A DNA stretch of 41,135 nt from a virus (Duplodnaviria > Heunggongvirae > Uroviricota > Caudoviricetes), in the IMG/VR virus record IMGVR_UViG_2909246061_000001, positions 1 to 41,135 of that record. One strand, given 5' to 3'. Numbering within the stretch: the stretch's first letter is position 1; each line of letters begins with the position of its first letter. This document shows positions 1,956 to 40,438 of the stretch, one piece after another. Below the pieces are notes generated by a model. The model did no database searches, was not told the origin of the DNA, and worked only from the letters and a program-made list of their open reading frames with translations. Both the position numbers and the translations under genes were made by a program.

Positions 1956-2231
1956 GTGGCTTCTGTTTATATCAGCTGTCCCTCCTGTTCAGCTACTGAC
2001 GGGGTGGTGCGTAACGGTAAAAGTACTGCCGGACATCAGCGCTATCTCTGCTCTCACTGCCGTAAAACATGGCAACTGCAGTTCACTTACACCGCTTCTC
2101 AACCCGGTACGCACCAGAAAATCATTGATATGGCCATGAATGGCGTTGGATGCCGGGCAACCGCCCGCATTATGGGCGTTGGCCTCAACACGATTTTCCG
2201 CCATTTAAAAAACTCAGGCCGCAGTCGGTAA
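1956..2231 (+). CDS. insA: IS1 transposition regulator InsA
   Basis: 91-aa zinc-finger protein [40 protein letters not shown] typical of IS1 InsA. Confidence 0.85.
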
Positions 2232-2653
2232 CCTCGCGCATACAGCCGGGCAGTGACGTCATCGTCTGCGCGGAAATGGACGAACAGTGGGGCTATGTCG
2301 GGGCTAAATCGCGCCAGCGCTGGCTGTTTTACGCGTATGACAGGCTCCGGAAGACGGTTGTTGCGCACGTATTCGGTGAACGCACTATGGCGACGCTGGG
2401 GCGTCTTATGAGCCTGCTGTCACCCTTTGACGTGGTGATATGGATGACGGATGGCTGGCCGCTGTATGAATCCCGCCTGAAGGGAAAGCTGCACGTAATC
2501 AGCAAGCGATATACGCAGCGAATTGAGCGGCATAACCTGAATCTGAGGCAGCACCTGGCACGGCTGGGACGGAAGTCGCTGTCGTTCTCAAAATCGGTGG
2601 AGCTGCATGACAAAGTCATCGGGCATTATCTGAACATAAAACACTATCAATAA
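2150..2653 (+). CDS. insB: IS1 InsB reading frame (expressed as InsAB' transposase by -1 frameshift at the tttaaaaaac motif near 2203..2212)
   Basis: ORF with canonical IS1 InsB sequence (…[29 protein letters not shown]…); A6C slippery run present. Confidence 0.8.
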
Positions 2654-3913
2654 GTTGGGACCATTACCCATTGGGGCATATTTATACTCGTCTATATGAC
2701 AGTTACTTTTTAAAATTTCACCCTTAAAATCCTCAATTATCTCTGAGTAAAATGATCTTAGTGCTTCATTTATTTTGAGATAGCTGTAATCATGTTCTGG
2801 CTTATAACCAATCAAAGTATATGCTCTTAAAAGACCACCAAATCGGGTTCTATAAACAGAAGATGAAGGGCCTGTATCATCTTCATCAATGATAAAGCCT
2901 GATAGTTTTCCATTAGATTCTAATTTTTGTTTTAGTTTTTCTAATAGATCTTCATTAGTCAAATGAATGGATCGGAGCTGAATTATTTCTTGAGCTTTAT
3001 TGTATTTTTTCTTTGAAATAATAGGTTTATATGCCTTGTCACATCTAACCCATTCATGTTTGGGGTTTTTTACAAGCCTACTTTTTAATTTAGATGAGGT
3101 TTTGTTATATATGTTGTTTCCAATATATTTTTCATTTGTCAAAATTTGATGTATTTTTGCACGAGTCCATAATGTTCCATTTTCTGCAGGTATGTTCTGT
3201 TCATTTAATCTCTCAGCAATAATGAATTCTGGGACGTTATTATCTATAAAGAGATCATATATTCTATTTACAATTTTTATTTCATTTTTTGGTCCCGGAA
3301 TTAATATTACCCTATCTGTTTGAATACTCTTTCTTTTGCGGAAACTCAATATTTCTTTAGCTATGCCATTTTCGTCTACTAAAAGACGTCTCAGCCCATA
3401 ACCAGCCATACCGCCTTGATGATAACCAAGCTTTATTAAATTTACTTGCCCTATAAATACCTTATCAGATAGATTCCTGCTGTGATATGCAGCACTAGAT
3501 CTTTTTATATTCAGTATAACAGAGGACTCTAAAGGGAAATCTTTAGTGGGTATAGGTTCGGAACAATATATAAGATCTACACCATTTCTCTCAAATAGAA
3601 AGGAATAATATGCCGCTTCATCACTATTTTGAAAACGACCAAAACGGCTCACATCATAAAATAATACAGCCTGTATATCTATTTTCTTTTGTTCTACATC
3701 GCTAAGTAACTGCTGCAAAGAATGCCTGCCTACGATACTGACTCCGCTCTTACCTGCATCATCGTAGGTATAAGCGATTTCCATATTGTTCTTTTCAGCA
3801 TAATCTTTGATATATTCGGACTGATTATGTAAAGAATATTGCTGATGGTCGGTAGACATCCTCAAGTACTGCGCGACCCTAACTCTATGATTTTTGTCAT
3901 TTTCGCTAGCCAT
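2588..3913 (-). CDS. large serine recombinase (resolvase-type catalytic domain plus recombinase domain); 3' end interrupted by IS1, so the last 27 codons are IS1-derived and the protein is probably non-functional
   Basis: N-terminal YLRMSTDHQ serine-recombinase motif; AT-rich; ORF crosses the IS1 right end at 2668. Confidence 0.6.
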
Positions 3914-4195
3914 GCACGAAACCTCATGGATGATTCAATACAATGTAGTGGATAAAATTGATCAAATTTCAACCGAATTCAACTGTTTTATCATTGATTA
4001 GAGCGAATTTGGTAGATCTTCGAGGTGTATGATAATCGAGAAGAGATGTGAATTATTTAGCTGATATGACCGACAGCTTTCGTTATGTGGACTCAATGTC
4101 CCCATTTGTAAATGGCTATGCTTAGTCCACATAGGTTAATGGTGTGATTATTAATTCTTTAACTAAATCAAGATAGTTAATCCATCATGGGAGAG

Positions 4196-5425
4196 TTATG
4201 CGGCAATAACTTTGCATTTTTGAGACGAAACATAGTCACTCCACCATTGCATGAGAACCACCCGTTCAGTGAGATACTCTGCACGATTGTAGGCTGCAAT
4301 TATTTCATCTTTCTTCGAGTGGGCAAGGGCGGCTTCTAAGACATCAGTCCTAAACTTGCCAGACTCCTCAGCAGCCGTTCTAGCAATGGATCGCATACCG
4401 TGAGCTACAAGCTCACCTCCGAAACCCATACGGATTATGGCCGCATTAGCTGTTTGTTCATGCATGTGATTGAGTGGAGCTTTGATACTGGGGAACACCC
4501 ACTCTCTATGCCCGCTGATGACTTTCATTAAATCCAAAACTCGCAAAGCTTCTTTGCTCAGTGGAACTTTGTGAGGCTTCTTCATTTTCATAAACTCCGC
4601 CGGGATGTTCCACATGCCAGTTTCAATATCAATATCTGACCATCTTGTGCGAACAGCTTCACCTGGGCGAACCCATGTGAGAAGTTGCCACTCAATCAGT
4701 AGCCTTGTTTCCAAACGGATAGAAGCATTGTTTAGAGCAACCAAGAAGCGAGGGAGTTCGGAAGGGGGTAATGCTGGCATATTCTGTTTTTTTGGCTTGC
4801 TGAACCGTTGCCCCAGGTTGTCTGCCGGGTTGAATTCTATGAGTTCTTCTGTTGCTGCATAGCGGAAAATTTCATTCAGGCGGGATATGATGCGGCGAAG
4901 TGTTTCAAGGACACCTCGTTTTTCTATGGGTTCTAAATGCTGTTTAAGCATTTTAGGGCGAATCTCCTTAATTGGGGTATCACCCAATGTGGAAAAGATA
5001 TTTCTCTCTAGGCTTCGCCAGATGTCGTTAGCATGATCTTGGGAGATGCCTGACGTTTTGACTTTCTCATCAAGCCACTTCTTGGCTACTGCTTGAAATG
5101 TATGTTCCGTGGCATCTTTCAGTGCATTGGCTTTTTGGTTGTTATGAACTTGGGGGTCTATACCATTTGTAAGCAACGACAAGTATTCATCACGTAAAGC
5201 TCGTGCCTTCGCAAGTGTAAGGTGAGGATAGGTTCCTAAGCTCACCTTAGTTCGCTTTTTGGTCACAGGCACTGCATATCTGAAATACCAATTTTTCTTC
5301 CCTCCCTTCGCCAGGGGAGCGATTCGCAACAGCAAACCATCGCCGTCAAAAAGGTTAACCTCTTTTTCGGCAGGTTTGGTGCTTTTGATTTCAGTGTCAG
5401 TGAGCTTCTTAGCGATTTTGGCCAT
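4196..5425 (-). CDS. tyrosine integrase, P4/CP4-57 IntA family
   Basis: N-terminus MAKIAKKLTDTEIKSTKP…DGDGLLLRI…WYFRY typical of P4-type integrases; C-terminal catalytic domain with …HGMRSIARTAAEESG… and YNRAEYLTER; probable ATG at 5425 (the track ORF extends to 5506); lies directly beside an ssrA 3'-end copy, as intA does beside ssrA in CP4-57. Confidence 0.85.
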   Translation of the reverse strand: MAKIAKKLTDTEIKSTKPAEKEVNLFDGDGLLLRIAPLAKGGKKNWYFRYAVPVTKKRTKVSLGTYPHLTLAKARALRDEYLSLLTNGIDPQVHNNQKANALKDATEHTFQAVAKKWLDEKVKTSGISQDHANDIWRSLERNIFSTLGDTPIKEIRPKMLKQHLEPIEKRGVLETLRRIISRLNEIFRYAATEELIEFNPADNLGQRFSKPKKQNMPALPPSELPRFLVALNNASIRLETRLLIEWQLLTWVRPGEAVRTRWSDIDIETGMWNIPAEFMKMKKPHKVPLSKEALRVLDLMKVISGHREWVFPSIKAPLNHMHEQTANAAIIRMGFGGELVAHGMRSIARTAAEESGKFRTDVLEAALAHSKKDEIIAAYNRAEYLTERVVLMQWWSDYVSSQKCKVIAA

Positions 5426-5522
5426 GTTTGGGACCCTCGATTTTAGGACCCATCTTCGTGGGTCCCATTCAGGGTGCCATAACTCGTAGTTCTCAGCAAT
5501 TCTCACTAGACTACAATAGACG

Positions 5523-5560
5523 TAAAAAAGCCCGCAGAGCTTGTGCTGTGCGGGCTTAGT
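5523..5560 (-). terminator. rho-independent terminator hairpin downstream (minus sense) of the ssrA 3'-end copy
   Basis: minus-strand gcccgcacagcacaagctctgcgggc followed by tttttt. Confidence 0.45.
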
Positions 5561-5587
5561 AGACTTTACTGAACTTCAGTACATCAA

Positions 5588-5636
5588 TATTTGGTGGAGC
5601 TGGCGGGAGTTGAACCCGCGTCCGAAATTCCTACAT
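5588..5636. repeat. 49-bp direct repeat identical to the ssrA 3' end; left att site of the P2-like prophage
   Basis: 5588..5636 is identical to 40072..40120 and the sequences diverge immediately outside both copies. Confidence 0.85.
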
Positions 5637-5768
5637 ACCATTTTTACTATAACAAAAACATGAACTTATGTTTAAAATCAGTGTGTTAGTATTATTTTGT
5701 GTTTGTCTGTTTTACGCATTTTTAATGCTCTGCCGCCAAAATGCCGCCACTGGTTTTGCTTGGGAGAC

Positions 5769-7289
5769 TTATTCAGGCTTTAATTTATTGATAATAGAAT
5801 CTACCATTTTAATGCCTGCCTCATTGACTATGACTGAATTGACTACTCTATCAAAATAGTCCTCTATATGGTGGGAAAATAGGAAAGCAGCACTTGATGG
5901 TTTTTTGTTCTTTTCAACTGCAGATTGCAAGACTTCATGAGGCGGAATTTTAAACCTTTTGCATGATGCAATGAGATATTCAAACTCTTCAAATGATAGA
6001 CAAAAAATATTCTCTGTAGGGATATGATAGTTATGTTTAAACTTGTCATATATCTTATTCATCTCATCTTTAGCATAAGTATTAGCTAGGATACTACCAT
6101 TGCCTAAGAAAAGGTTTTTATATGTAATGCAAATGATATATGAGTTAGCCCTGAATGGAGCTATTATTCGCTCATTAGAGTATATTTCTCGATTAACTTC
6201 GTGAGATTGTTCGATTGCTTTTAATACCGATTTCTTTATTTTTCCTGCAATATCCTCAGGGCGTAATGTTACCATGCCTTTTTGGTGTATCTCAACGCCT
6301 TTAGCATCAATGAAAATATTTGCCTCAGTATGTGGAATGAAATAATCAACTACTTTATTATCTTTAGGTAGTCGTTCTTTAAGGTATTTTTCGTTATGAA
6401 AATCAATTTCGCTTTCTTTTAGTATTAATTCCAGTGCATTTTCAAATACATTTCCAAAGCTATCCATGAACTTCTCGGCATCAGTTCTTCTTAAAAGATC
6501 ATATATGAACGTCTGTATGCTTGTTGAAGTCAGTTGTGTGTGTATCTGAAAATACTCTGAACCTTTTTTTATTAATGGTTTTTCAAGAAAAGGTGATGAT
6601 GAGTAGTATTCAAGCAAAGGTTTATCATAGGTTTTTGATTTGCAAAATGTAGATAGTTCATTGTAATTTATTGATATTGCATCAAGAAATTTCTCAATGG
6701 TATTTCTAGGAATGATGTCAAATAATATAGTAAATGTATCTACATTCATTTTTCTCACGGGATGCTCTTCTGTTATGTGAGTTATTAATATGTAAGATAG
6801 CTTAAGAAAGTCTTCGATAGATACATTCGTGATAGTAAAAAAACTTTTCTTTATTTTATGGTTTTTTTCAAGTTCTGAAAATAGAAAGACTTGTCTGCTA
6901 ATTGTGTTTAGAGCGTCAATTTTCTGGTAGATTCCTTGTTGGTATAGATTATTTCTAATGAAGAAATGCATGCCATTCTTCCTCTCAAGACCGATAGGAA
7001 TAATGTTCAAGGTTTCATAAGTTTTTTGGAAGAGTTTTATTGCTTGATTTTTATCGAGGATTTTGAATTTTTTATTCTTGCCAGTTACTGACGCAGACCA
7101 CTTTAGACATAAATTAACAATCCAAGGCATGTGTCGTAACATGTGGATATTATCTTCAAATTTTTGTAAGTTATATTGCATACAGAATTCGATAAATAAA
7201 TCAGGGGAATAACCTTGGATTTCTGAACGAATAGCATCCATTCTTAACTTTGCAACCGCATCAGATTGAATATCTAATTTTTGAATCAC
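5769..7289 (-). CDS. hypothetical 506-aa protein; AT-rich cargo gene between the prophage integrase and the left att
   Basis: long ORF with GTG start and GGAGA RBS 13 bp after the int stop; very low GC against the phage backbone; I recognise no fold; possible PD-(D/E)xK-like signature VVDYF…IFIDAKG. Confidence 0.6.
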   Translation of the reverse strand: MIQKLDIQSDAVAKLRMDAIRSEIQGYSPDLFIEFCMQYNLQKFEDNIHMLRHMPWIVNLCLKWSASVTGKNKKFKILDKNQAIKLFQKTYETLNIIPIGLERKNGMHFFIRNNLYQQGIYQKIDALNTISRQVFLFSELEKNHKIKKSFFTITNVSIEDFLKLSYILITHITEEHPVRKMNVDTFTILFDIIPRNTIEKFLDAISINYNELSTFCKSKTYDKPLLEYYSSSPFLEKPLIKKGSEYFQIHTQLTSTSIQTFIYDLLRRTDAEKFMDSFGNVFENALELILKESEIDFHNEKYLKERLPKDNKVVDYFIPHTEANIFIDAKGVEIHQKGMVTLRPEDIAGKIKKSVLKAIEQSHEVNREIYSNERIIAPFRANSYIICITYKNLFLGNGSILANTYAKDEMNKIYDKFKHNYHIPTENIFCLSFEEFEYLIASCKRFKIPPHEVLQSAVEKNKKPSSAAFLFSHHIEDYFDRVVNSVIVNEAGIKMVDSIINKLKPE

Positions 7290-7301: not shown

Positions 7302-8315
7302 CTACAAATTATAAAGAGGATTTTTAGTCACCGCGTCTTCAAGGTGATCGGGCGAAAAGTGGGCGTAAATCATGGTCATTTTTATATCGGCATGACCCAA
7401 AATATCACGCAGTACCAGTATGTTTCCGCCGTTCATCATAAAGTGACTGGCGAATGTATGGCGAAGCACGTGGGTACATTGGCCCTCCGGTAGGTCAATA
7501 CCGGCCCGCTTTACTGCCCGCTCAAAGGCTTTTCTGCATGGCGTGAATAACTTTCCTCTGTTTTTGGGGAGTTCATCATACAGATCCTGAGATATCGGCA
7601 CAGTACGGTTTTTCTTGCCTTTTGTTTTTGTATAAGTAATTCGGTATTTCGATATTTGATGGCCCTGCAGATTTTCGGCTTCACTCCACCGTGCGCCAGT
7701 AGCCAGACATATTTTTGCAATCATTAGTAAGCTAGGGCTTTGAGATTCAGCACATGCCGCCAACAGGCGCTTGATTTCGTCCGTGGAAAGAAAAGCCAGC
7801 TCACCTTCGGCAATTTTGAAGGTCGGAAGTCCTGCCAGCGGGTTTGGTGCTGACCAGTGTCCTAGTTTTTTTAATGTACCGAACACAGATGATAGATTGC
7901 GCTGTTCAAGGTTTACCGTGCGGGGCTTAACGGGCGACATCAGCGTGCCATCTTCATTTCGCACTTCACCTTTTAGCCGTGCTTCGCGGTATTTCGTAAA
8001 GTCACCGGCAGTCAGCTCTGAAGCGATGGGATCGCCCAGACCATTACAGATAATTCCAAGTTTCGCCATGAGTCGCTTGGGGTCTGCGAGTGTTTGACCA
8101 TACAGGGAATACCACAGCTCAATTAATTCTGATAGGTGTCGCCGATCTTCCTTTTCTCCCAGCCAAGGTTTCTTGTTTACCTCGTCCATGGTGAAATTCT
8201 CAAACGCAATGGCTTCGCCTTTCGTCGCAAATTGTTTGCGTACGCGTTTGCCATCTCGCCCGTTTGGGTAGCATTCACATAACCACTTTCCGTTCGGCTG
8301 TTTTCTGATGGTCAT
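7302..8315 (-). CDS. int: P2/186-type tyrosine integrase
   Basis: 337 aa, same length as P2 Int; C-terminal motifs ARWSEA…HVLRHTFASHFMMNGGNILVLRDILGHADIKMTMIYAHF. Confidence 0.9.
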   Translation of the reverse strand: MTIRKQPNGKWLCECYPNGRDGKRVRKQFATKGEAIAFENFTMDEVNKKPWLGEKEDRRHLSELIELWYSLYGQTLADPKRLMAKLGIICNGLGDPIASELTAGDFTKYREARLKGEVRNEDGTLMSPVKPRTVNLEQRNLSSVFGTLKKLGHWSAPNPLAGLPTFKIAEGELAFLSTDEIKRLLAACAESQSPSLLMIAKICLATGARWSEAENLQGHQISKYRITYTKTKGKKNRTVPISQDLYDELPKNRGKLFTPCRKAFERAVKRAGIDLPEGQCTHVLRHTFASHFMMNGGNILVLRDILGHADIKMTMIYAHFSPDHLEDAVTKNPLYNL

Positions 8316-8316
8316 A

Positions 8317-8949
8317 TCAAAGGCTCTTAATGATTTTCAGTGCGCGGCCTATTACCTCAATGTCATCCAGTTCGCACTCAAACGATGAATCATCCTGATG
8401 CACTACTAATCTGTTTCCCGGGAGTCGTGTCAATTTTACAATGCTTTTTATCCCGTCGATGTCCACTAACCACGTACCATTTACTGGTGGTGTTTGGTTG
8501 CGATCTATTAAATAAGAATCACCAGAAGTAGTCACCAGCAGCAGGTTGCTTGAGTCTGAGGGGAGTATGCTGCTATCAATGATTGCTTTTCCAGCATCGA
8601 TCAGCAAACCTCCGTTGAGAGTTGCCTTGTCAATTTCAGGAGATACAAGCTCCGAAAGAGGTTTAACTTTGCTAGAGTTCACGGAATTGATATTTTTTTT
8701 AGGGTCAATGTTTGAACCTGGATCGCCCTGTCCGGTAGTTAGCCACAGTAAAGAAACTCCTGTTTCCAAAGCGCACTGAATCACCCATTCTGCAGGAAAA
8801 CTATCTCTTAAGTATCTGTTTGCCATAGTGCTTTTTGATGCGCCCAAGTGATCGCAAAGTTGCTGTCTGGACTTGAAATCATAGGCTGCCATTAGCCTAT
8901 GGATAGCCTCTCTTCCCCCTGTATTCTCGCCAGCTTTTACTTGTATCAT
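8317..8949 (-). CDS. cI: 186 CI-type immunity repressor
   Basis: N-terminal HTH plus C-terminal region with CALETGVSLLWLTTGQG and TWLVDIDGIKSIVKLTRLPGNRLVV resembling the 186 CI repressor; divergent from the early operon. Confidence 0.75.
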   Translation of the reverse strand: MIQVKAGENTGGREAIHRLMAAYDFKSRQQLCDHLGASKSTMANRYLRDSFPAEWVIQCALETGVSLLWLTTGQGDPGSNIDPKKNINSVNSSKVKPLSELVSPEIDKATLNGGLLIDAGKAIIDSSILPSDSSNLLLVTTSGDSYLIDRNQTPPVNGTWLVDIDGIKSIVKLTRLPGNRLVVHQDDSSFECELDDIEVIGRALKIIKSL

Positions 8950-10900: not shown

Positions 10901-11754
10901 GCACCATCCTGAAATGGGCGGGAAATAAAACCGCCATTATGTCCGAACTGAAAAAACACCTTCCTGCTGGCCCGCGACTGGTTGAACCTTTCGCGGGTTC
11001 CTGTGCTGTGATGATGGAGACGGATTACCCCAGCTATCTGGTTGCGGATATTAATCCTGATTTAATCAACCTCTATAAAAAGGTTGCCGCTGATTGTGAA
11101 TCGTTTATATCTCGCGCCAGAGTTTTATTTGAGATCGCAAACAGGGAGGTGGCTTATTACAACATAAGGCAGGAGTTTAATTACTCCACTGAAATTACTG
11201 ATTTCATGAAAGCGGTATATTTCCTGTATCTCAATCGTCACGGTTACCGTGGTTTATGTCGCTATAACAAGAGCGGGCATTTCAACATTCCCTACGGTAA
11301 TTATAAAAATCCGTATTTCCCTGAAAAAGAAATTCGCGCATTTGCAGAAAAAGCCCAGCGGGCAACGTTTATCTGCGCCAGCTTTGATGAAACGCTGGCG
11401 ATGTTGAAGGCGGGGGATGTGGTGTATTGCGATCCGCCGTATGACGGCACGTTTTCCGGTTATCACACTGACGGCTTCACTGAAGATGACCAGTATCACC
11501 TGGCATCCGTTCTTGAACATCGGTCATCAGAAGGACATCCGGTCATTGTTTCTAACAGTGACACATCCCTGATCCGTTCGCTGTATCGCAATTTTACTCA
11601 CCACTACATCAAGGCAAAACGCAACATCGGTGTGGCAGCTGGAGAGGGTAAATCAGCAACAGAAATCATTGCTGTTTCCGGGCCGCGCTGCTGGGTGGGA
11701 TTTGATTATTCGCGTGGCGTGGACAGTTCTGCCGTGTACGGAGTACGTGCATGA
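10897..11754 (+). CDS. dam: DNA adenine methyltransferase (Dam-like, orphan)
   Basis: N-terminal ILKWAGNK…EPFAGSCAV AdoMet-binding motif and DPPY catalytic motif; no partner endonuclease nearby. Confidence 0.85.
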
Positions 11755-14165
11755 GTCATGCCGATATGAACAACTGCTGCGGCTTTAACGAGGCTGCCGC
11801 AGCATTCTCATGGAACAGCCCGAAAAAGGCCATTAACCCTTATCTGGACCCGGCGGAAGTTGCGCCGGTTTCTGCGCTTTCAAACCTGATCACTCTGTAC
11901 GCTGCCGATAACGAGCAGGAACAACTGCGCCGCGAGGCACTGAGTGATCAGGTCTGGGAGCGTTATTTCTTTAATGAATCCCGTGATCCTGTCCAGCGCG
12001 AAATGGAGCAGGATAAGCTAATTAGCCGGGCAAAGCTGGCGCATGAGCAGCAGCGTTTTAATCCAGACATGGTCATTCTGGCGGATGTCAACGCCCAGCC
12101 TTCCCATATCAGCAAGCCGCTGATGCAACGTATTAAATACTTCAGCAACCTGGGCAGGCCAAAGGCTTATTCCCGCTATTTGCGTGAGACGATTAAGCCA
12201 TGCCTGGAACGACTGGAGCATGTACGCGACAGCCAGCTATCTGCATCTTTTCGTTTTATGGCAAGCCATGAAGGGCTGGACGGTCTGCTGATCCTGCCTG
12301 AAATGAGTCAGGATCAGGTGAAACGCCTGTCCACCCTTGTCGCTGCGCATATGAGCATGTGTCTTGATGCCGCTTGTGGTGATTTGTACGCCTCCGATGA
12401 TGTTAAGCCGGAAGAAATCCGCAAGACATGGGAAAAGGTGGCAGCAGAAACCCTGCGACTGGATGTCATACCGCCTGCGTTTGAGCAACTCCGCCGGAAA
12501 AGAAACCGCCGCAAACCTGTGCCCTATGAACTCATTCCGGGTTCGCTGGCGCGTATGCTGTGCGCCGACTGGTGGTATCGAAAATTATGGAAGATGCGTT
12601 GCGAATGGCGGGAAGAGCAGTTGCGTGCTGTCTGTCTGGTCAGCAAAAAAGCATCTCCCTATGTCAGCTATGAAGCCGTGATGCATAAACGTGAGCAGCG
12701 CCGTAAGTCGCTGGAGTTTTTCCGTTCTCATGAACTGGTGAACGAAGACGGCGACACGCTGGACATGGAGGATGTGGTAAACGCCAGCAGCAGCAACCCT
12801 GCGCATCGCCGCAATGAGATGATGGCCTGTGTTAAAGGCCTGGAGCTTATCGCGGAAATGCGCGGTGACTGCGCCGTTTTCTACACCATCACCTGTCCGT
12901 CACGTTTCCATTCCACGCTAAATAACGGCAGGCCCAACCCGACCTGGACAAATGCGACGGTAAGACAAAGCAGTGATTATCTGGTTGGCATGTTTGCTGC
13001 ATTTCGTAAGGCGATGCACAAAGCCGGATTGCGCTGGTATGGCGTGCGGGTGGCTGAGCCGCATCATGACGGTACAGTTCACTGGCACCTGTTGTGTTTT
13101 ATGCGCAAAAAAGATCGCCGCGCCATTACTGCTTTGTTGCGTAAGTTTGCCATTCGTGAAGACCGCGAGGAGCTGGGGAATAACACGGGACCACGCTTTA
13201 AGTCTGAGTTGATTAACCCGCGCAAAGGAACGCCGACAAGCTACATCGCGAAATATATCAGTAAGAACATTGACGGGCGTGGTCTGGCTGGCGAGATCAG
13301 CAAGGAAACGGGTAAATCCCTGCGTGATAACGCTGAATACGTGAATGCCTGGGCGTCTCTGCATCGTGTTCAGCAATTCCGCTTCTTTGGCATTCCGGGG
13401 CGTCAGGCTTACCGTGAACTGCGATTGCTGGCTGGTCAGGCGGCAAGGCAACAGGGTGACAAAAAAGCAGGTGCGCCGGTACTGGATAACCCGCGCCTTG
13501 ATGCAATCCTGGCTGCTGCTGATGCTGGTTGTTTTGCCACCTACATCATGAAGCAGGGCGGCGTACTGGTTCCCCGTAAATATCACCTCATCAGAACTGC
13601 TTATGAAATCAACGAAGAGCCGACCGCCTATGGCGATCACGGCATTCGTATTTATGGCATCTGGTCACCTATTGCAGAGGGCAAGATCTGCACTCATGCC
13701 GTGAAGTGGAAAATGGTTCGTAAGGCCGTTGACGTTCAGGAGGCGGCAGCCGACCAGGGCGCTTGCGCCCCTTGGACTCGTGGCAATAACTGTCCCCTTG
13801 CTGAAAATTTGAACCAACAAGGGAAAGACAAATCAGCTGATGGGGATACCAGAACGGACATTACCCGCATGGATGACAAGGAGTTGCACGAATACCTGCA
13901 CAGTATGAGCAAAAAAGAGCGCCGGGAACTGGCTGCAAGGTTACGCCTGGTGAAACCGAAACGGCGTAAAGACTACAAACAGCGAATTACAGACCATCAG
14001 CGACAGCAGCTCGTCTATGAACTGAAGTCCAGAGGATTTGATGGCAGCGAGAAAGAGGTCGATTTACTCCTTCGCGGCGGCAGTATTCCGTCAGGAGCAG
14101 GCCTGCGTATCTTCTATCGGAACCAGCGTTTGCAGGAAGATGATAAGTGGCGGAACCTGTATTAA
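11751..14165 (+). CDS. A: P2 gpA-type replication initiation endonuclease
   Basis: 804 aa; HUH-type motif VHWHLLCF and catalytic Tyr region [12 protein letters not shown]. Confidence 0.9.
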
Positions 14166-14259
14166 TTACGCGGGTTAACAATTCGTGCTCTTAATAATAC
14201 CAGGCATTTCAGGCTGATGAACGTAAAAAAACGTTTTACATCAGTAAGATTATTATATA

Positions 14260-14275
14260 CTGTAAATATAAACAG
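14260..14275. promoter_or_regulatory. LexA (SOS) box upstream of the small operon at 14318
   Basis: ctgtaaatataaacag is a perfect CTGT-N8-ACAG match, about 40 bp before the AGGAGG RBS and ATG at 14318. Confidence 0.55.
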
Positions 14276-14317
14276 TGGTTATATATACAGTATTACTTTG
14301 GTGTCATAGGAGGAAAG

Positions 14318-14506
14318 ATGCAGGACTATTTTTTGGAGTCTTTGAAGCTCCAGCGCATTGATTTTTTTCTTAAGCTTGTAGCGGCTAGTGAGTGTAGTGA
14401 TGAAGAGAAGGGGCTGGCTCTGCAGTGGGTTTCTGAATTGACTGATGAACTCATGGCAAAAATCAGAACCCACGAATACAACCGCTCAATGGATGTCATC
14501 AGCTGA
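14318..14506 (+). CDS. small SOS-regulated protein, possible Tum-like antirepressor
   Basis: 62-aa ORF directly downstream of the LexA box; functional assignment is by position only. Confidence 0.4.
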   Translation: MQDYFLESLKLQRIDFFLKLVAASECSDEEKGLALQWVSELTDELMAKIRTHEYNRSMDVIS

Positions 14507-14516
14507 GGTGACCTTT

Positions 14517-14750
14517 ATGCGCATTGAAATAATGATCGATAAAGAGCAGAAGATTAGCCAGTCTACCCTGGACGCCCTTGAATCCGAGCTTTACCGCAAT
14601 CTGCGCCCCCTGTATCCCAAAATGGTAATTCGCATCCGCAAAGGTAGCTCTAACGGTGTGGAACTGACCGGACTGCAACTGGACGAAGAAAGAAAACAAG
14701 TGATGAAGATTATGCAGAAGGTGTGGGAAGACGACAGCTGGCTGCATTAA
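14517..14750 (+). CDS. DinI-family protein
   Basis: MRIEIMIDKEQKISQSTLDALESEL…KVWEDDSWL resembles E. coli DinI (MRIEVTIAK…); track ORF 14445..14750 trimmed to the internal ATG at 14517. Confidence 0.7.
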   Translation: MRIEIMIDKEQKISQSTLDALESELYRNLRPLYPKMVIRIRKGSSNGVELTGLQLDEERKQVMKIMQKVWEDDSWLH

Positions 14751-14909
14751 GAAAAGTTGCTGGCGTCTGAACTTGGTTCTGGCGTCAGCAAGGTTGAACA
14801 ACGAGTACAGTGAGGCGTTAGGTGTGGCGTTTATTTGATGAGTGAACGCCCGTTCTGCGACAGGTTCGGAGATTAAGGTTGAAACTACGGGCAAAATACC
14901 ATCTTTTTC

Positions 14910-15335
14910 CTACTTAATTGAGTCCAGTAACAAGTTACAGTTACTCTCATTGTAGAGAGAACGAGCAATTAGTGTTACCTGCTTTCCATTCATTCCCGGC
15001 TTATCCCATAACACAGCTTCTTGCGACGCCACAAATTCAGCATAATCAATTATGCGTTGTTCGTGATCTGGTTCCTCATAGCCAAAGTATGAGAGCGCAT
15101 CGTTGTAAGCGTGGTAAGCTGCTTTCTGTAATATCTTGATATCGGCTGTAGGTACTTGCTCCGTGTAGCTAGGATCTAATTGTGTGCTACTGCCATAGAA
15201 TGCACATGAAAGGTAAGATATTGATTTCTGTTGAGCTTTAGTTCCTTTCTCATAGTTTTTAGCTGTTACCGCCTGAACTGGGACGCTAACAAAGCTTGCA
15301 ACCAGAATTAAAATTAATACGTAAAAGCTTTTCAT
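14910..15335 (-). CDS. small secreted protein of unknown function (141 aa, signal peptide)
   Basis: N-terminus MKSFYVLILILVASFVSVPVQA with probable cleavage after VQA; AT-rich; opposite strand to neighbours; on the A side of cos. Confidence 0.55.
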   Translation of the reverse strand: MKSFYVLILILVASFVSVPVQAVTAKNYEKGTKAQQKSISYLSCAFYGSSTQLDPSYTEQVPTADIKILQKAAYHAYNDALSYFGYEEPDHEQRIIDYAEFVASQEAVLWDKPGMNGKQVTLIARSLYNESNCNLLLDSIK

Positions 15336-15678
15336 TTTGACCTCAGCCGAAACGTTAGAGAGACTATCGAAATTTGTAAAACCCGTGGCGATTCAGTTTG
15401 AGATCCTCCCCCTTACATGATTTTTAATCAAATATATGCTTTTGTAAGCATACCTGTTAACCGAATTATTTATTTTTAGAGATCTTCCGACATACTGATT
15501 ATGCCCGCTGAGGAGTTCACCTTGCGTAAGGTCCGATTCGCTTTACTCGTCTGTGCATGTCTATGCTGCATGAGATTGCATGATCGTTTGAGGATCGTTT
15601 TTGCTAAGGCCCGCCAGAACTGGCGGGCTTTTGCGTAGATCATGCACCTGCATGAAAACCACTACATAAAGCGGGCAG

Positions 15679-15697
15679 GCGTGGCGGGGATACGAGC
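15679..15697. other. putative cos site (cohesive-end region) of the P2-like phage
   Basis: ggcgtggcggggatacgag matches the first 12 nt of the 186 cos (GGCGTGGCGGGG…) and resembles P2 cos GGCGAGGCGGGGAAAGCAC. Confidence 0.4.
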
Positions 15698-15763
15698 GCG
15701 CGCTTATTACTTTGATAGTACTCGGGTTATAATATGGATGACTATCTATCTCGGAGAATGTAC

Positions 15764-17416
15764 ATGTCATTAGACTATATTAAAGAACAGTTGTCAGACT
15801 TTATTTCATCTGCAGAACCTGAGGTAATGGCTATTCAGGGTGAGTGGGGGATTGGGAAAACCTATACTTGGAATGCTTTCTTAAAGGAAAATAAAAATAA
15901 GATTGCATTTAATAGATATAGTTACGTCTCTCTTTTTGGTGTTAATTCATTGGACGCATTAAAATACTCCATCTTTGAAAATACAATTACGAAAGATTTC
16001 ATTGGAAACAAACCTAATTTAAAAACAGCAACACAAAATGCAAAGGGGCTTCTTGAATCCTGCACTAGAAAGACCGCTCGTGTGTTAAAAGATACACCTT
16101 TTTTGAAAAATTTCACTACGACACTTGAGTCAATGTCATTTATGTCAATTACTAATGTTATTGTAGTCATAGATGACTTAGAAAGACGTGGTAAAAATTT
16201 AGAAGTGAAAGATGTCTTAGGGTTGGTTTCTTTATTGAAAGAACAAAAAAATTGTAAGGTGGTTCTTTTACTTAATAACGGGACAAGTGGTATGGATGAC
16301 TACTCCACTTATAAAGAAAAGGTTATTGATAGAGAGATTACCTATAATCCTACTCCAGAAGAATGTGCAGTTATAGCATATAAAAATAATTCTGATGTTC
16401 ATAAATTATTAAGCAAATACTCCATTTCCCTGGGTATTAAGAATATTAGGATACTGAAAAAAATAGAGCGGTTTTTGCTAGCCTTGTTACCTGGCATTAA
16501 CGTTAATTTTGAAAAAATTGCAAATGAAGTCGCACACTCCTTAACTTTGTATTGTTGGAGTCATTACGCATTTACTCCAGATGGAGATGTACCATCATTG
16601 GAGTATATTAGAAATATGAGAAATATCTATATGCGTGATGAAAAAGAGGATGGAAAAGAAAAAAAATGGCTTAATACTTTGCTTATATATGATTATAAAA
16701 AAACAAACGAACTTGATGAAGTCCTTATAGACATGGTAAAGCATGGATATATTGATATGAACAATTTCCAAAGGCAAGTAAGTCTAAGGAATGATGAACT
16801 TATCCGTGATAGTAAGCGAGGTTCACTGTTTGAAGCATGGAAGCTTTTCTATAATTCATTTGAAGATAACCGAAATCAGGTTATTGATAATCTATATCAA
16901 GCGGTGGTTGGTGGGATAGAGTATGTAACTCCAAGTGACTTGGATAGTGTTGTCGGACTGTATAGAGATTTAGGTGAAAATATTCAAGCAAGTGAATTAA
17001 TAAGTAAATTTATTAATTACGGCAATGATGCTCTTAAGGAATATGTTCAATCTATTTACATGAATGTTCATCCTATAAAAGATGCTGAGTTAAAGTCAAA
17101 AATCCAAGATTATTCTACTACTTTAAATCTGGATGGTTCTATAAAGGATGTTCTAATAAAATTATCAAGTCAGAATGGTTGGTCTGATAGGCACGAGGAA
17201 ATATTGGATGCTGCCTCAGAGGATGACTACTATGATTTATTTAAAAAAGTCATTCTTGATGGTGGTGATTCAATAATAGCTACTGCTCTTAAGTTTGGTG
17301 GGTATAGCAATGGTTCAGAAAGAATGAAACGCATCGGAGAAAAAGCGAGAAATGCTTTGATAAGAATTGGAAATGAGTCGAGCATTAATAAAATACGTGT
17401 TAGACGGTATTTGTAA
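15764..17416 (+). CDS. KAP-family P-loop NTPase-like protein (551 aa from the ATG at 15764); candidate anti-phage cargo
   Basis: Walker A GEWGIGKT (15839..15862) and Walker B VIVVIDDLER (about 16160..16186) in KAP-type spacing; GGAG RBS before ATG 15764; perfect TATAAT at 15728..15733; AT-rich; followed by a terminator hairpin. Confidence 0.7.
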   Translation: MSLDYIKEQLSDFISSAEPEVMAIQGEWGIGKTYTWNAFLKENKNKIAFNRYSYVSLFGVNSLDALKYSIFENTITKDFIGNKPNLKTATQNAKGLLESCTRKTARVLKDTPFLKNFTTTLESMSFMSITNVIVVIDDLERRGKNLEVKDVLGLVSLLKEQKNCKVVLLLNNGTSGMDDYSTYKEKVIDREITYNPTPEECAVIAYKNNSDVHKLLSKYSISLGIKNIRILKKIERFLLALLPGINVNFEKIANEVAHSLTLYCWSHYAFTPDGDVPSLEYIRNMRNIYMRDEKEDGKEKKWLNTLLIYDYKKTNELDEVLIDMVKHGYIDMNNFQRQVSLRNDELIRDSKRGSLFEAWKLFYNSFEDNRNQVIDNLYQAVVGGIEYVTPSDLDSVVGLYRDLGENIQASELISKFINYGNDALKEYVQSIYMNVHPIKDAELKSKIQDYSTTLNLDGSIKDVLIKLSSQNGWSDRHEEILDAASEDDYYDLFKKVILDGGDSIIATALKFGGYSNGSERMKRIGEKARNALIRIGNESSINKIRVRRYL

Positions 17417-17420
17417 TTTG

Positions 17421-17450
17421 GGAGGGGGATTTTCATCCCCCACACATTTT
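17421..17450 (+). terminator. rho-independent terminator between the NTPase gene and the portal gene end
   Basis: hairpin gggggat-tttc-atccccc followed by a T-rich stretch. Confidence 0.45.
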
Positions 17451-17452
17451 AT

Positions 17453-18481
17453 CTAATTCAATGAATAATCTTTGAAGGCTATTATTTTTTTCTTTAGCCA
17501 AATATTAATTTCTACAAGTCTTTTTTGTAAAGGAGTTAACTCATTTCGCACAAAAACGCAACTGGCTTTTTCTATATCCCCAACCCCCCCAACATTGTTT
17601 GGCATTATCCCCATCATCTGCGGCGGCACACGATGCGCCGCCATCATGTCATCCCGACTTACGTTCTTGATGTTAAGAAATTCATCCTTCGCCGCGACTT
17701 CTGACAATGGGATGATCTGAAGCCCGTCTTTTTTGCCGTTAGGCGAGTACATAAACAGGTTGCGGAAGTTGCCTGGACCTTTGGCACTTTTCATCGCGTT
17801 GCGGAGGTTGTTCACATCCTCCTGATTCTGCGCGGCGTCGGTCATGTACATGATGAAGCCTGCATGGCTGCCGTTGATGTAATACTTACGGCGGAACAGC
17901 GTGGCGGACTCGTTGAGCAGGGCGGATGGAATGGCAGAAAGATAGCCGGGCAGGCCGTAGATCTCCTGGTTGATGTCCGGTTCCATCAGATGAAAAATGC
18001 TGCCTTTCGTGAACTGATACGGCTGGGTTGTCATACCGTATTGCACAAACCAGTAGGTATCCAGGTCTAACCCACGTCGGGTGTATTTTGCCAGAGCAGG
18101 CTCAAGGGCGATAACTTCACCGAACCGGTTCGTGCGTTTCTCCAGGTAAGCGTTACCAAATACCAGATAGTCCTGCACAAAACGTGAAAAAGCCTGCTGG
18201 CTGAGAAGCGGGTGAGGGATGTAGGTACTGGTCAGAATGTTGCATTTCACCGCAATTGGTGAACTGTGATGCACGGCAGCGCGGAAGGTTCGCGCCAGTC
18301 CGTCAAAACTCACTGGCGGCTCATACCAGCGATCTGTCTGTACGCATTCTACATAGTCCAGCAGTTCGCGGCGGTCCAGAACAGGAACGGGATCGCCAAA
18401 GCTGAATGCTTCGGCTGAAGTCTGGCTTTTGTGCTGAATCTGGTTCGTCGACACAGCGCGGTTCTTCTTACTCTTTCCCAT
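17453..18481 (-). CDS. Q: portal protein (P2 gpQ)
   Basis: about 342 aa, same size and position as P2 Q; ATG at 18481 overlaps the P stop. Confidence 0.9.
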   Translation of the reverse strand: MGKSKKNRAVSTNQIQHKSQTSAEAFSFGDPVPVLDRRELLDYVECVQTDRWYEPPVSFDGLARTFRAAVHHSSPIAVKCNILTSTYIPHPLLSQQAFSRFVQDYLVFGNAYLEKRTNRFGEVIALEPALAKYTRRGLDLDTYWFVQYGMTTQPYQFTKGSIFHLMEPDINQEIYGLPGYLSAIPSALLNESATLFRRKYYINGSHAGFIMYMTDAAQNQEDVNNLRNAMKSAKGPGNFRNLFMYSPNGKKDGLQIIPLSEVAAKDEFLNIKNVSRDDMMAAHRVPPQMMGIMPNNVGGVGDIEKASCVFVRNELTPLQKRLVEINIWLKKKIIAFKDYSLN

Positions 18482-20247
18482 CAAAAAATCTCCACAATAT
18501 TGCTGGTATTGGCGGACTCGCCCTGCAGCGGTTCGTTAAACAGTGCGTGCATTGTTGCCCACGCCAGATCGGCATGGCTGGCTTCTTCGCTGCGGCTGGC
18601 TTCATAGGTCGGGCGGTTGCCGCTGGCGGTGGTGGCGCGACGGATTGCCATAAATGACTGCGCTATGTCGGTGTGTCCGGCGTCAAACTCCAGACGGCGG
18701 TGGCTGATAATGTCGTAGGCCTTGAGTACCAGGGCGTTTTTAACGTTGGGGTTGTAGACAAACTCCCGGACGGCAGGAAAGAACGCTTTTACGTTCTCAT
18801 AAACCCCGTGACCGACACCTGTCGAGTCGATACCGATATAGGTCACGTTGTACTGTTCAGTCAGTTTTTTGATGGCGTCCGCCTGGGCACGGAAGTCCAT
18901 CCCGCGCCACTGGTGACGCTCAAGAATGCGGAACTTACCGCCCGGCACGGCTGGCGGAGCCACCACCACGCACCCGGCGCTGTCGCCGTTTTGCGTACCT
19001 TTTGCCGGGTCATAACCGATCCACACTTCGCGCCAGCCAAACGGGCGCAGGGCCAGTGCATGAAAGTCGGTCCAGACTTCCCAGCTGTCCACCATGCAGG
19101 CCTGCAGCTCGCTGAGCGGGAACACGGACGCGAGATCGTCCACGAATTCACACATCAGCAGGTTCTGGTATTCGTCCGGGCTGTATTCCATGCGCAACTG
19201 GTCAAGGTCGAACAGGTTACAGCCGCCGCGAACCGCATCTTCCACGGTGACTATCTGGCGGTATTGCCCGTCTGCACACAGCAGGCCTGGAGCCAGATTG
19301 CTGTGGGACAGGTCTATGTCCACCTTGTCGGCTTTATTGCGCCCACGGTTGAATAGCGCACCGGACCAGAACGGATAAGCACTGTGTGTCAGGCTGGATG
19401 GCGTGGAAAAATAGGTTTGTCGCCATTTTTTGTGAATAGCCATACCGGAAGCCACTTTGCGCAGCTCCTGGAATTTCGGTATCCAGAAATATTCATCCAG
19501 ATACAGGTTGCCGTGGTAACTCTGGGCCGTGCGGGCATTGGTGCCGAGGAAATACAGTGTGGCCCCGTTGGGAAGCACCATCGGATCGCCTTTCAGCTCC
19601 ACTTCCACTTCTTTGGCGAAGTCGATGATGTACTGCTTAAAGACGTGGGCCTGTGCCTTGCTGGCGGAAAGGAAAATCTGGTTACGTCCGGTCAGCAGGG
19701 CGTCAATCAGGGCTTCACGGGCAAAGTAAAAGGTCGCGCCGATCTGGCGTGACTTCAGCAGGTTGCGGATGCGGTTGGTTTTTCCGGCTTCCCACCAGTG
19801 GCGCTGGTAGTTGAACATGGAGGAATGGAAGATTTCTTCCAGCTTCTCAATCTGTTCATCGGTGAAGACATTTTTTTCCGGCTGACGGCGCGGGCCTTTG
19901 TTGCGGTTGGCGACGTTAGGGTTTAAGTCGGCTTCGTTGCCGCCATTGTTAAACTTGCCGATCCGCGCGTGGCGCTCAGACTGGCGCGCCAGCAGGTCAA
20001 TCTCTTTGAAATCTTTCCCTTCTTTGTGCTCCTTCATAATGAGCTGGCAGTAGCGTGCGGCGGTGGTGAGCTGCATCTGATCCAGTGGCCCATAGTCACC
20101 CCACTTGTCGCGTTTTTTCCAGCTGTGAACGGTTGCAACTTTCTCGCCCAGCATTTCAGCAATGCGGGCTACGCGGTATCCCTGAAAGTACAGCAGCATG
20201 GCCTGCCGACGGGGATCGAGATCTGCGGGTGTCAGTGTGGTGTTCAT
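18481..20247 (-). CDS. P: terminase large (ATPase) subunit (P2 gpP)
   Basis: 588 aa; typical P2 P order directly upstream of Q. Confidence 0.9.
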   Translation of the reverse strand: MNTTLTPADLDPRRQAMLLYFQGYRVARIAEMLGEKVATVHSWKKRDKWGDYGPLDQMQLTTAARYCQLIMKEHKEGKDFKEIDLLARQSERHARIGKFNNGGNEADLNPNVANRNKGPRRQPEKNVFTDEQIEKLEEIFHSSMFNYQRHWWEAGKTNRIRNLLKSRQIGATFYFAREALIDALLTGRNQIFLSASKAQAHVFKQYIIDFAKEVEVELKGDPMVLPNGATLYFLGTNARTAQSYHGNLYLDEYFWIPKFQELRKVASGMAIHKKWRQTYFSTPSSLTHSAYPFWSGALFNRGRNKADKVDIDLSHSNLAPGLLCADGQYRQIVTVEDAVRGGCNLFDLDQLRMEYSPDEYQNLLMCEFVDDLASVFPLSELQACMVDSWEVWTDFHALALRPFGWREVWIGYDPAKGTQNGDSAGCVVVAPPAVPGGKFRILERHQWRGMDFRAQADAIKKLTEQYNVTYIGIDSTGVGHGVYENVKAFFPAVREFVYNPNVKNALVLKAYDIISHRRLEFDAGHTDIAQSFMAIRRATTASGNRPTYEASRSEEASHADLAWATMHALFNEPLQGESANTSNIVEIF

Positions 20248-30241: not shown

Positions 30242-30847
30242 ATGATGAATAAAGCTGTATTAAATAGCGAACTCATTGCCATAAAAGCGGGAGACATTAT
30301 CATTTATAATTATGATGGTGAAACGCGGGAATATATTTCTACATCAACTGAATATCTCGCTGTCGGCGTCGGTATCCCGGCATGTTCCTGTTTGGATGCA
30401 CCAGGTATACATAAAGCTGGTTATGCAATCTGTCGCTCTGTAGATTTAAATTCATGGGAATATGTGCCAGACCATCGCGGTGAAGTTGTCTATAGTACCG
30501 AAACGGGAGATACCAGAGAAATCACAGTTCCGGGTGATTACCCTGAAAATACAACCACTATCGCCCCATTAACGCCATACGATAAATGGGATGGTGAGAA
30601 ATGGGTGACCGATACTGAGGCACAGCATAGCGCCGCAGTAGAAGCGGCAGAAGCACAGCGCCAGTCACTGATTGATGCAGCAATGGCTTCCATTAGTCTG
30701 ATTCAGCTGAAATTACAGGCCGGGCGGAAACTGACGCAGGCAGAAACAACCCGGCTTAACGCTGTGCTGGATTACATTGACGCGGTGACGGCAACAGATC
30801 CCAGCACCGCGCCGGATGTCATCTGGCCTGAACTGCCGGAGGCGTAG
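30242..30847 (+). CDS. tail fibre assembly protein (Tfa, P2 gpG-like)
   Basis: C-terminal …[14 protein letters not shown] typical of Tfa; start overlaps the restored end of H. Confidence 0.8.
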
Positions 30848-31247
30848 GCCATTCAATATCGGGTGCTGTTGAAGTATCAACACGCATCAGCAGCACTCGG
30901 TATTTCTTCCATTCGGTGAGAGTTGAAGTTTCTTCATCAGTTGCGATATCAGCATCAACAGCATCCTGACGCCAGGATATTTCACTGTCAGCTTTTTCCC
31001 GTAATTGGGATTTTTTAACTTCAGCAATAGCTATTAATTCCTTTTGGGTCGGCTGAGGAATATCTATCAGTGCTGGTTTTCCATTCAGTGTTCCAATCTG
31101 TTTTCCTGGTGGAATATCCATAAATAACTTTTTATGTTCTTCCTCACTGACTATTACACCATCATCAGGCCACAGACCTGATGCCTCAAATTTTTCTTTC
31201 TCCGATATGGGGAAAAAGCCATTTGCTTTAGCGCTCCATACGTACAT
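30819..31247 (-). CDS. alternative tail fibre assembly protein (Tfa') in the invertible segment
   Basis: opposite strand; C-terminal …[14 protein letters not shown] typical of Tfa. Confidence 0.75.
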
Positions 31248-31554: not shown

Positions 31555-31609
31555 TGCAGAGATAACGGCTAACTGGCATCATCCCCGGTTTTTATTCAGG
31601 GGATTGATC

Positions 31610-39451: not shown

Positions 39452-39475
39452 ACCTGCTACGGCAGGTTTTTATTC
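39452..39475 (+). terminator. terminator hairpin after ogr (bidirectional; overlaps the stop of the convergent 160-aa gene)
   Basis: acctgc-tacg-gcaggt followed by ttttatt. Confidence 0.45.
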
Positions 39476-40071: not shown

Positions 40072-40120
40072 TATTTGGTGGAGCTGGCGGGAGTTGAACC
40101 CGCGTCCGAAATTCCTACAT
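40072..40120. repeat. 49-bp direct repeat at the prophage right junction, overlapping the ssrA 3' end
   Basis: identical to 5588..5636. Confidence 0.85.
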
Positions 40121-40438
40121 CCTCGGTACTACATGCTTAGTCAGTCTTTACATTCGCTTGCCAGCTGCGGACGGACACGCCACTAACAAACTAGCCTGAT
40201 TAAGTTTTAACGCTTCAACCCCAGGCAGGGCTTCCACGCGATCTCTTTTGGGTTTGACCTCTCTTGATCCCCGTCCTAAGAGCGGAGGCTAGGGAGAGAG
40301 GGCTCTAAGCAGGTTATTAAGCTGCTAAAGCGTAGTTTTCGTCGTTTGCGACTATTTTTTGCGGCTTTTTACGAGGCCAACCGCCCCTCGGCATGCACCT
40401 TGGGTTTCGCAAATCCCGTCGAATCCAGAATCAGCCCC
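40076..40438 (-). ncRNA. ssrA: tmRNA (SsrA), 363 nt, intact
   Basis: reverse complement reads GGGGCTGATTCTGGATTCGACGGGATTTGCGAAACCCAAGGTGCATGCC…GGACGCGGGTTCAACTCCCGCCAGCTCCACCA, matching E. coli tmRNA end to end. Confidence 0.95.

Follow-up and report, generated by a model that had tools for sequence, protein, structure and literature searches.

A KAP-family P-loop NTPase gene next to the cos site of an Escherichia coli P2-family prophage: a candidate single-gene anti-phage defence

What is an AT-rich gene for a P-loop ATPase doing between the cos site and the portal gene of a P2-family prophage? The question is raised by a 41,135-nt stretch of DNA (IMG/VR record IMGVR_UViG_2909246061_000001, positions 1 to 41,135; hereafter the window), which comes from an E. 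coli chromosome, carries a Fels-2/186-like P2-family prophage, and is, over the segment 14200..17700, 100% identical to E. coli strain E308 (NZ_CP030281). The gene in question (15764..17416, forward strand) encodes a KAP-type P-loop NTPase and had been put forward, from the sequence alone, as a single-gene anti-phage system (the original prediction). Our analysis modestly favours reading it as a self-contained, horizontally acquired anti-phage defence candidate that would act through an ATPase switch without a separate effector; that the gene confers protection against some phages is the broader claim, and we consider it probable.

The NTPase, its C-terminal domain and its family

The coding sequence spans 1653 nt, i.e., 550 amino acids (aa) and a stop codon, and is annotated in RefSeq as WP_118393794, a 'P-loop NTPase fold protein'; the coordinates first given for it stand, and the length of 551 aa given with them had counted the stop codon. 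An alternative in-frame ATG at 15734 overlaps the -10 hexamer of the gene and is unlikely to be the start. As the original prediction had noted, the gene is AT-rich against the phage backbone, with a GC content of 0.32–0.33 over 16001-17500 compared to 0.50–0.59 in the flanking prophage genes (~55% in the prophage).

KAP proteins are recognized by a Walker A motif of the form GxWGxGK[ST] and a Walker B motif of the form hhhhDDL[DE]R. Both motifs named in the original prediction are present in this pattern: Walker A, GEWGIGKT, lies at 15839..15862 (+; aa 26-33) with G26, W28, G29, G31, K32, and T33 invariant across 65 homologues, and Walker B, VIVVIDDLER, lies at 16157..16186 (+; aa 132-141) with I136, D137, D138, E140, and R141 invariant in the same set. 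The site for ATP binding and hydrolysis is intact and conserved. The profile check bore out the assignment, with the Pfam family KAP_NTPase (PF07693; Aravind et al. 2004) matching aa 8-200 at 34.8 bits, above its curated gathering cutoff of 20.

Whether the protein falls into a defence family already named had been left open, and here the PADLOC models supplied an answer, namely the candidate family PDC-S49 (PDLC05031; E=1.7e-25), with aa 6-435 aligned to only positions 9-443 of the 624-position model, as a raw hidden Markov model match rather than a formal PADLOC call with per-model coverage and E-value thresholds. Distant relatives of the protein match PDC-S49 too. The same search at E<=1 returned only PDC-S49 and PDC-S20, with nothing from named systems and no Avs/NLR model. 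In PHROGs, phrog_4740 was matched end to end (E=6e-145) and is annotated as 'unknown function', while NCBIfam held no family for the protein and the family profile, run against the sequences of PDB chains, gave nothing meaningful (best E-value 0.19). On these profile matches, we assign the protein to the KAP superfamily and to the PDC-S49 candidate clade.

In an AlphaFold model that draws on 65 homologues (pLDDT 83.8), the protein falls into two parts. The N-terminal NTPase module (aa 1-248; 15764..16507, +) comprises a five-stranded ORC/Cdc6-like AAA+ core and a helical lid, together extending to about residue 245, and a structure search placed ORC/Cdc6 and TnsC on top and also retrieved the STAND proteins Apaf-1, Avs4, SAMD9, and NLRP9. 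The C-terminal domain (aa 249-550; 16508..17413, +) is all-alpha and conserved, has no recognisable enzymatic fold, and resembles only helical-repeat scaffolds, as seen in sensor domains. The original prediction had described about 400 unassignable residues after the Walker motifs; an unassigned part does exist, but given the reach of the NTPase and lid it amounts to ~300 residues.

Between Walker A and Walker B lies a ~60-aa helical insert (aa ~73-130), soluble and partly disordered, with low confidence at aa 94-121; in classical KAP proteins, this region instead holds transmembrane (TM) helices. We found no TM segment in the protein (maximum Kyte-Doolittle 19-residue mean, KD19, of 1.28), in agreement with the original prediction, and the KD19 maxima across the aligned homologues have a median of 1.23 and a highest value of 2.13, so that not all of them stay below a TM-like value. 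The accompanying claim, that this sets the protein apart from membrane-anchored KAP defence proteins, does not hold for all of them, since PifA is a KAP protein likewise reported without TM helices (PMC13001434); for the same reason, their absence does not exclude KAP membership. We had also considered DNA binding through a basic insert (aa 76-130) and dropped it, as the family consensus, by inspection, is not basic there and the segment is the least constrained of the protein (dN/dS 0.29).

The family is large. A word-indexed search returned 923 homologues. The best 120 come from Vibrio, Shewanella, Pseudomonas, Aeromonas, Salmonella, Serratia, and others; nearly all of them are full-length at 550–586 aa (a few of ~524–533 aa and one of 615 aa), with an identity of ~43%. 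When 1.84 billion representatives were searched exhaustively with the profile, 5,444 proteins matched at E<=1e-3 and 1,742 at E<=1e-30, the ~1,700 members at the stricter threshold being clusters at 50% identity; nearly all of the best 150 matches aligned end to end. Between two E. coli alleles, dN/dS was 0.13 overall, 0.10 in the NTPase, and 0.16 in the C-terminal domain, which points firmly to purifying selection. Together with more than 900 full-length homologues, this value excludes, as far as sequence comparison goes, an open reading frame (ORF) that arose by chance.

The regulatory signals read from the sequence fared unevenly. A putative promoter of the gene's own has a consensus -10 hexamer, TATAAT, at 15728..15733 (+), preceded at an 18-nt spacing by TTATTA at 15704..15709, which agrees with the -35 consensus in only three of six positions. 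The ribosome-binding site GGAG (15753..15756, +) lies 7 nt 5′ of the ATG. Both TATAAT and GGAG are kept in an allele of 77% identity despite the 20% divergence of its coding sequence, so this part of the claim of an own promoter and ribosome-binding site stands; the -35 is poor, however, and a consensus scan for promoters and terminators called neither the promoter nor the hairpin described next, with counts no higher than in shuffled sequence. The proposed terminator, a G/C-rich hairpin at 17424..17441 between the convergent cargo and portal genes, does form a 7-bp G/C stem (dG -15.3 kcal/mol), but it is no more stable than shuffles (z = -1.08) and has no adjacent U-run. Sister cassettes carry a hairpin at the equivalent place, some with a proper T-run, and because of this correspondence it is plausible that the hairpin, positionally equivalent to tQ/tW of P2/186, is a terminator shared by the two genes in the manner of tQ and tW. 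A search of 14000..18000 against Rfam found no RNA family.

The cargo slot between cos and the portal gene

The prophage encodes an integrase (7302..8315), CI (8317..8949), the gpA replication endonuclease (11751..14165), and a DinI/Tum-like gene (14445..14750) on one side of cos, followed on the other by the portal gene, a gpQ homologue (17453..18484, −; stop at 17453), the terminase (18481..20247, −), and capsid and tail genes. The window also contains ssrA (40076..40438). We placed cos by aligning the upstream region to Fels-2-type phages and to P2 and 186 across their circularised genome ends. In a blastn search with 15340-15800, Fels-2, RE2010, and P2-like phages of Klebsiella and Yersinia cover positions 214-367 of the query, marking a conserved cos region at 15553..15706 (+) that forms the left boundary of a variable cassette. 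Within it, the 19-nt cohesive-end equivalent GGCGTGGCGGGGATACGAG (15678..15696, +) aligns with the annotated cosL of P2, GGCGAGGCGGGGAAAGCAC, and of 186, GGCGTGGCGGGGAAAGCAT, and cleavage would be predicted to occur at these positions. Homology to the sister phages stops ~7 bp after the cohesive-end sequence, right after ...GCGCGCGC.

The right boundary is more diffuse. The portal gene flanks the cassette, and homology to related phages resumes only at ~17481-17517, giving a boundary at ~17480–17520. The last ~20–35 portal codons diverge among sister prophages far more than the rest of the gene, and because of this we place the right recombination boundary inside the 3′ end of the portal gene, such that portal C-termini travel with the cargo.

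In P2 and 186, the distance from cosL to the portal stop is only ~170 bp, a terminator included, and the original prediction was right that P2 is nearly empty there. The portal-side position is unusual only relative to P2 and 186, however; it is the standard cargo slot of the Fels-2-like lineage, used by all of 15 sampled loci (E308 and nine other E. coli prophages of the same backbone, Fels-2, vB_EcoM-813R9, a Salmonella prophage, and two further KAP-bearing E. coli loci). In each, the cos-to-portal interval measures 0.68–2.14 kb and its cargo is read away from cos. The cargo includes retron Ec67, retron St85 (in BL21(DE3)), and PRTase+DprA, the last a type of system validated by Rousset et al. 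2022 (PMC9122126), as well as TIR, PIN, and DUF262 proteins, an OLD-like ATP-dependent endonuclease, SieB, a Hypoth_Ymh/HEPN protein, and, in Fels-2, AbiU/AIPR (PADLOC E=3e-112). The predicted location in the gpA-to-portal hotspot of a P2/186-like prophage was thus confirmed, with known defence genes held there by sister prophages. P2 old and tin, Fels-2 AbiU, the two retrons, and PRTase+DprA occupy the same gpA-gpQ hotspot beside cos as interchangeable defence cargo for lysogenic conversion, and their proteins are unrelated to that of the window; P2 old and tin differ further in being on the gpA side of cos, the portal side being used by the gene of the window and by the cargo of Fels-2-like prophages.

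Among 5,426 complete E. coli genomes, ~1,325 have the prophage backbone and 128 have the KAP gene. The gene is therefore horizontally acquired accessory cargo rather than core, as had been proposed: it is AT-rich, sister prophages carry alternative cargo in its slot, and only a minority of backbone genomes have it. A conserved core gene at this site in all related prophages, named in the original prediction as a ground for refutation, is thus not what the comparison shows. On the gpA side of cos, two sister prophages encode other P-loop/KAP proteins, one of 630 aa in NC101 (locus positions 2074..3966) and one of 706 aa labelled 'KAP family' (2197..4317); the NC101 protein shares 23% identity with that of the window (E=1e-7), in the NTPase only. 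Because these two proteins are unrelated or barely related to the protein of the window, KAP-type ATPases appear to have been recruited to the gpA-gpQ hotspot several times independently.

Its genomic contexts elsewhere are those of a gene that travels by itself. The cos-to-portal slot of a Salmonella prophage is filled by a member with 44% identity, a Cronobacter member has an AbiJ-like gene as its neighbour in a lambdoid prophage, a Pseudomonas member sits beside an integrase and AlpA, and Serratia and Vibrio members are lone chromosomal inserts among housekeeping genes. Such unrelated contexts agree with the prediction of a single-gene system.

In E. coli, a 77%-identical allele (WP_023147874) makes up 109 of 129 matching records. 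At the locus that we examined in full (NZ_CP033401), this allele is intact in a P2-like remnant that lacks the genes from mid-terminase to gpD, with capsid, tail, and lysis genes lost, and four further sampled records have the same truncated-terminase annotation. The remnant (1851849-1878960) sits between rcdA and ybjL and retains int, CI, early genes, gpA, the KAP gene, the portal gene, and, on the gpA side of cos, a gene for an 883-aa S1/HsdR_N-domain protein; its lineage holds most copies of the KAP gene. An intact gene in a defective remnant is the pattern expected of cargo that benefits the host. We did note that RefSeq gives WP_023147874 as 614 aa at this locus (positions 4752..6596), which we rejected as an over-extended start that reads through cos (core 4860), given that the alignment with the protein of the window begins at residue 65.

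Apart from the corrections given above, the original prediction was borne out wherever it could be checked. None of this makes the gene new in kind. The gpA-gpQ interval was defined as a defence hotspot by Rousset et al. 2022 (PMC9122126), whose Table S5A lists this very locus (NZ_CP030281) as 'hypothetical + DinI + hypothetical + KAP_NTPase' and has 25 or more entries for WP_023147874 as 'S1/HSDR_N + KAP_NTPase'; their main text reports no test of a P2 KAP protein. The hotspot and the gene's presence in a supplement thus date from 2022, the PADLOC model from 2023, and the concept of single-gene KAP defence from 2025–2026.

Relatives, proposed action and competing explanations

The closest parallel with a measured phenotype is Reve, a single-gene KAP system from a P4-satellite hotspot with strong protection against Drexlerviridae (bioRxiv 10.64898/2026.02.27.708500). 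Going by how File S3 and the main text of that work order the systems, Reve would be UnknownSys7, carried by pFD425, and we took the UnknownSys7 sequence from the supplement for comparison; pFD425 cut the plating of seven Drexlerviridae to 1e-2 to 2.5e-6 and left lambda unaffected (bioRxiv 10.64898/2026.02.27.708500). Reve and the gene of the window are alike in being single, AT-rich genes that differ little in length (586 vs. 550 aa) and adjoin a P2/P4-type cos, in a Walker A of the form GEWGxGKT (GEWGVGKT in Reve, with IIDDLER as its Walker B), in matching PDC-S49, and in having the ORC ATPase module as top fold match (for Reve, as reported). By blastp, the two proteins share 26% identity over aa 21-243 (E=2e-12), and hhalign of Reve against the profile of the window-protein family gave 97.8% probability over aa 5-249 only. 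Full-length homology was not found, the C-terminal halves being unrelated at the sequence level, and the settings differ in that Reve is carried by a P4-like satellite and reads towards cos, whereas the gene of the window is carried by a helper-type prophage and reads away from it. We therefore regard the protein, by alignment, as a distant cousin of Reve that has the ATPase in common with it and the C-terminal domain not.

Other KAP and P-loop systems are further removed. KAP NTPases fused to uncharacterised ~300-aa regions (EF_KAP and metagenomic relatives) protect Enterococcus faecalis, reportedly in a non-abortive manner that requires Walker B (PMC12632615, a 2025 preprint); by description, which is our only basis of comparison, EF_KAP resembles the candidate in being a single gene with a KAP P-loop domain followed by ~300 aa without a known domain, but this Firmicutes protein has two N-terminal TM helices, unlike that of the window. 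PifA of plasmid F, responsible for T7 exclusion, is also encoded by a mobile element and has the KAP motifs GAWGSGKT and VVMDDLDR, but is a 741-aa protein operonic with pifC. Membership in Pif exclusion was rejected on an hhalign probability of only 19.5% against the window family (E=1e-3) and on the lack of a pifC-like gene nearby. Tmn (Gao et al. 2020; YobI-family) is, like the candidate, a single-gene P-loop NTPase defence; it has two TM helices inside its P-loop domain, exports Mg2+, and senses phage proteins in a way that modulates ATP turnover (PMC13001434). Membership in Tmn was rejected for lack of a TM segment and in view of the PADLOC result above. Membership among STAND, Avs, or NLR-like proteins was likewise rejected, with NB-ARC at 14.9 bits against a cutoff of 23.5, no effector fold, and no Avs/NLR match in PADLOC. 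Compared to the ORC/Cdc6 initiators, the protein has no identified winged-helix DNA-binding domain.

From these comparisons, we infer the defence activity, trigger, oligomerisation, and output of the KAP protein as follows. The gene would be expressed from its own promoter in the lysogen, and the helical C-terminal domain, possibly with the soluble NTPase insert, would recognise a product of an infecting phage. Recognition would flip the ATPase to an ATP-dependent oligomeric or engaged state, and the assembly itself would halt infection, in that it sequesters or remodels its target or else engages the replication of phage DNA; the assembly is proposed as the blocking agent in view of the lack of any nuclease, NADase, pore, or other effector domain. 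A conserved NTPase with non-homologous C-termini in Reve and in the window family fits a role for the C-terminal helical domain as the specificity or sensor element, which it may well be. Our judgement is evenly divided on a Walker-motif-dependent sensor-switch with specificity set by the C-terminal domain, and any particular output is unlikely or, at best, doubtful. One such version, that of an effector-less immune ATPase in which an ATP-locked assembly of KAP and helical domains, formed upon sensing of a phage component, disables the phage with no cell-suicide output, whether it sequesters an essential phage protein or loads onto phage DNA in replication, is as specified an unlikely one.

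Several points weigh against the defence reading. PDC-S49 itself has only candidate status, and no paper that mentions it turned up in a search of the literature. The homology to Reve, at 26% identity, is limited to the NTPase and lid, the C-terminal ~300 aa do not align, and the measured phenotype (efficiency of plating of 1e-2 to 2.5e-6 on Drexlerviridae) is Reve's only. Structure searches recognised no effector domain in the protein, which makes the output step speculation, and expression in the lysogen is putative, given the weak -35 and a promoter missed by the two-hexamer scan. In addition, partition systems occupy about a quarter of P2-like hotspots and toxins some, and only three of eight newly cloned P2-hotspot systems were positive (PMC9122126).

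These last counts, by which most cloned hotspot candidates showed no phenotype, also speak for the best surviving alternative, namely that the gene is non-defensive cargo, such as an ATPase for element maintenance, replication control, or addiction, or a moron acting on host physiology. An ORC/Cdc6-like fold fits replication or maintenance roles as well. However, Pfam, NCBIfam, and PADLOC gave no sign of ParA/ParB, a toxin, or an antitoxin in the protein, which matches instead a candidate family derived from defence islands; the lone chromosomal inserts have no element to maintain, and the NZ_CP033401 remnant, which retains the gene, is unable to replicate as a phage. We regard non-defensive cargo as unlikely.

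A gene for competition between elements, which would act against other P2-like phages or against P4-like satellites that take over the capsids of this prophage, e.g., by blocking cos-dependent packaging or replication, seems rather improbable. It would suit a gene that adjoins cos, the only region common to P2 and P4 (Rousset 2022, PMC9122126), and the P2-hotspot system of phage AC1 does protect against P2 itself (PMC9122126); an ORC/Cdc6/TnsC-like fold is, moreover, typical of DNA-engaging ATPases. The position next to cos is, however, common to all cargo types of the lineage and so is not specific to this gene, family members occur outside P2-like elements (in the lambdoid prophage and as the lone inserts of Serratia and Vibrio), and Reve acts on lytic Drexlerviridae.

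More improbable still is abortive infection at the membrane in the manner of PifA, with depolarisation and nucleotide leakage upon sensing of a phage protein and without a predicted TM helix. PifA does provide a precedent for a KAP protein that acts by membrane depolarisation though reported without TM helices (PMC13001434), and the KAP motifs are common to both proteins. Yet their relation is very weak by hhalign, no notable hydrophobic or amphipathic segment exists at a maximum KD19 of 1.28, the locus has no pifC-like partner, and the Enterococcus KAP system was reported not to be abortive (PMC12632615).

Finally, a two-gene system that pairs the KAP gene across cos with the gene for a 141-aa signal-peptide-like protein on the gpA side (14910..15335, −; WP_000834899, phrog_7437, no Pfam match), suggested by the two being neighbouring, AT-rich, and absent from P2 and 186, is effectively refuted by independent assortment, since WP_000834899 co-occurs with unrelated cargo (PRTase+DprA, PIN, HIRAN, and DUF262/DUF1524) and is missing alongside the KAP allele of NZ_CP033401, the Salmonella member, and the members outside prophages. 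The 141-aa gene occupies another, smaller slot of variable content on the gpA side and is found as an independent module among many portal-side cargos.

Other variable modules and implications

Beyond the KAP gene, we noted further modules of interest in the window. A 506-aa ORF (5769..7289, −; GC ~0.30–0.32; no Pfam or PADLOC match) lies just outside the prophage integrase (7302..8315), and is flanked on its other side by another tyrosine integrase (4196..5506), a large serine recombinase (2588..3913), and an IS1 transposase (2150..2653). The ORF could be further cargo, sitting in the integrase-att slot mentioned in bioRxiv 10.64898/2026.02.27.708500, or it could belong to a separate islet. 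The segment 30242..32176 has the appearance of an invertible tail-fibre module, with convergent, overlapping Caudo_TAP tail-fibre assembly genes (30242..30847, +; 30819..31247, −) and a Hin/Cin-type invertase (31604..32176; Resolvase and HTH_7 domains). Between the gpD-like gene and ssrA, a 160-aa ORF (39470..39952, −) has a weak C-terminal match to the PADLOC candidate PDC-S48 (E=1.7e-7) and none in Pfam.

Returning to the KAP gene as a defence candidate, the hotspot, the presence of the gene, and the concept of KAP defence are already in the literature, and no new category is opened by it. If validated, it would provide a phenotype for the large candidate family PDC-S49/phrog_4740, which is spread across Gammaproteobacteria and prophages, and a second, soluble representative of the single-gene KAP-NTPase defences, alongside Reve, EF_KAP, and PifA. 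With no recognisable effector domain, the protein would be a convenient system for learning how an ATPase and a helical sensor stop a phage unaided. Were the unlikely effector-less version of its action true, the PDC-S49/Reve-type clade, in which a conserved NTPase is joined to swapped helical C-termini, would amount to a bacterial repertoire of direct-binding restriction factors.

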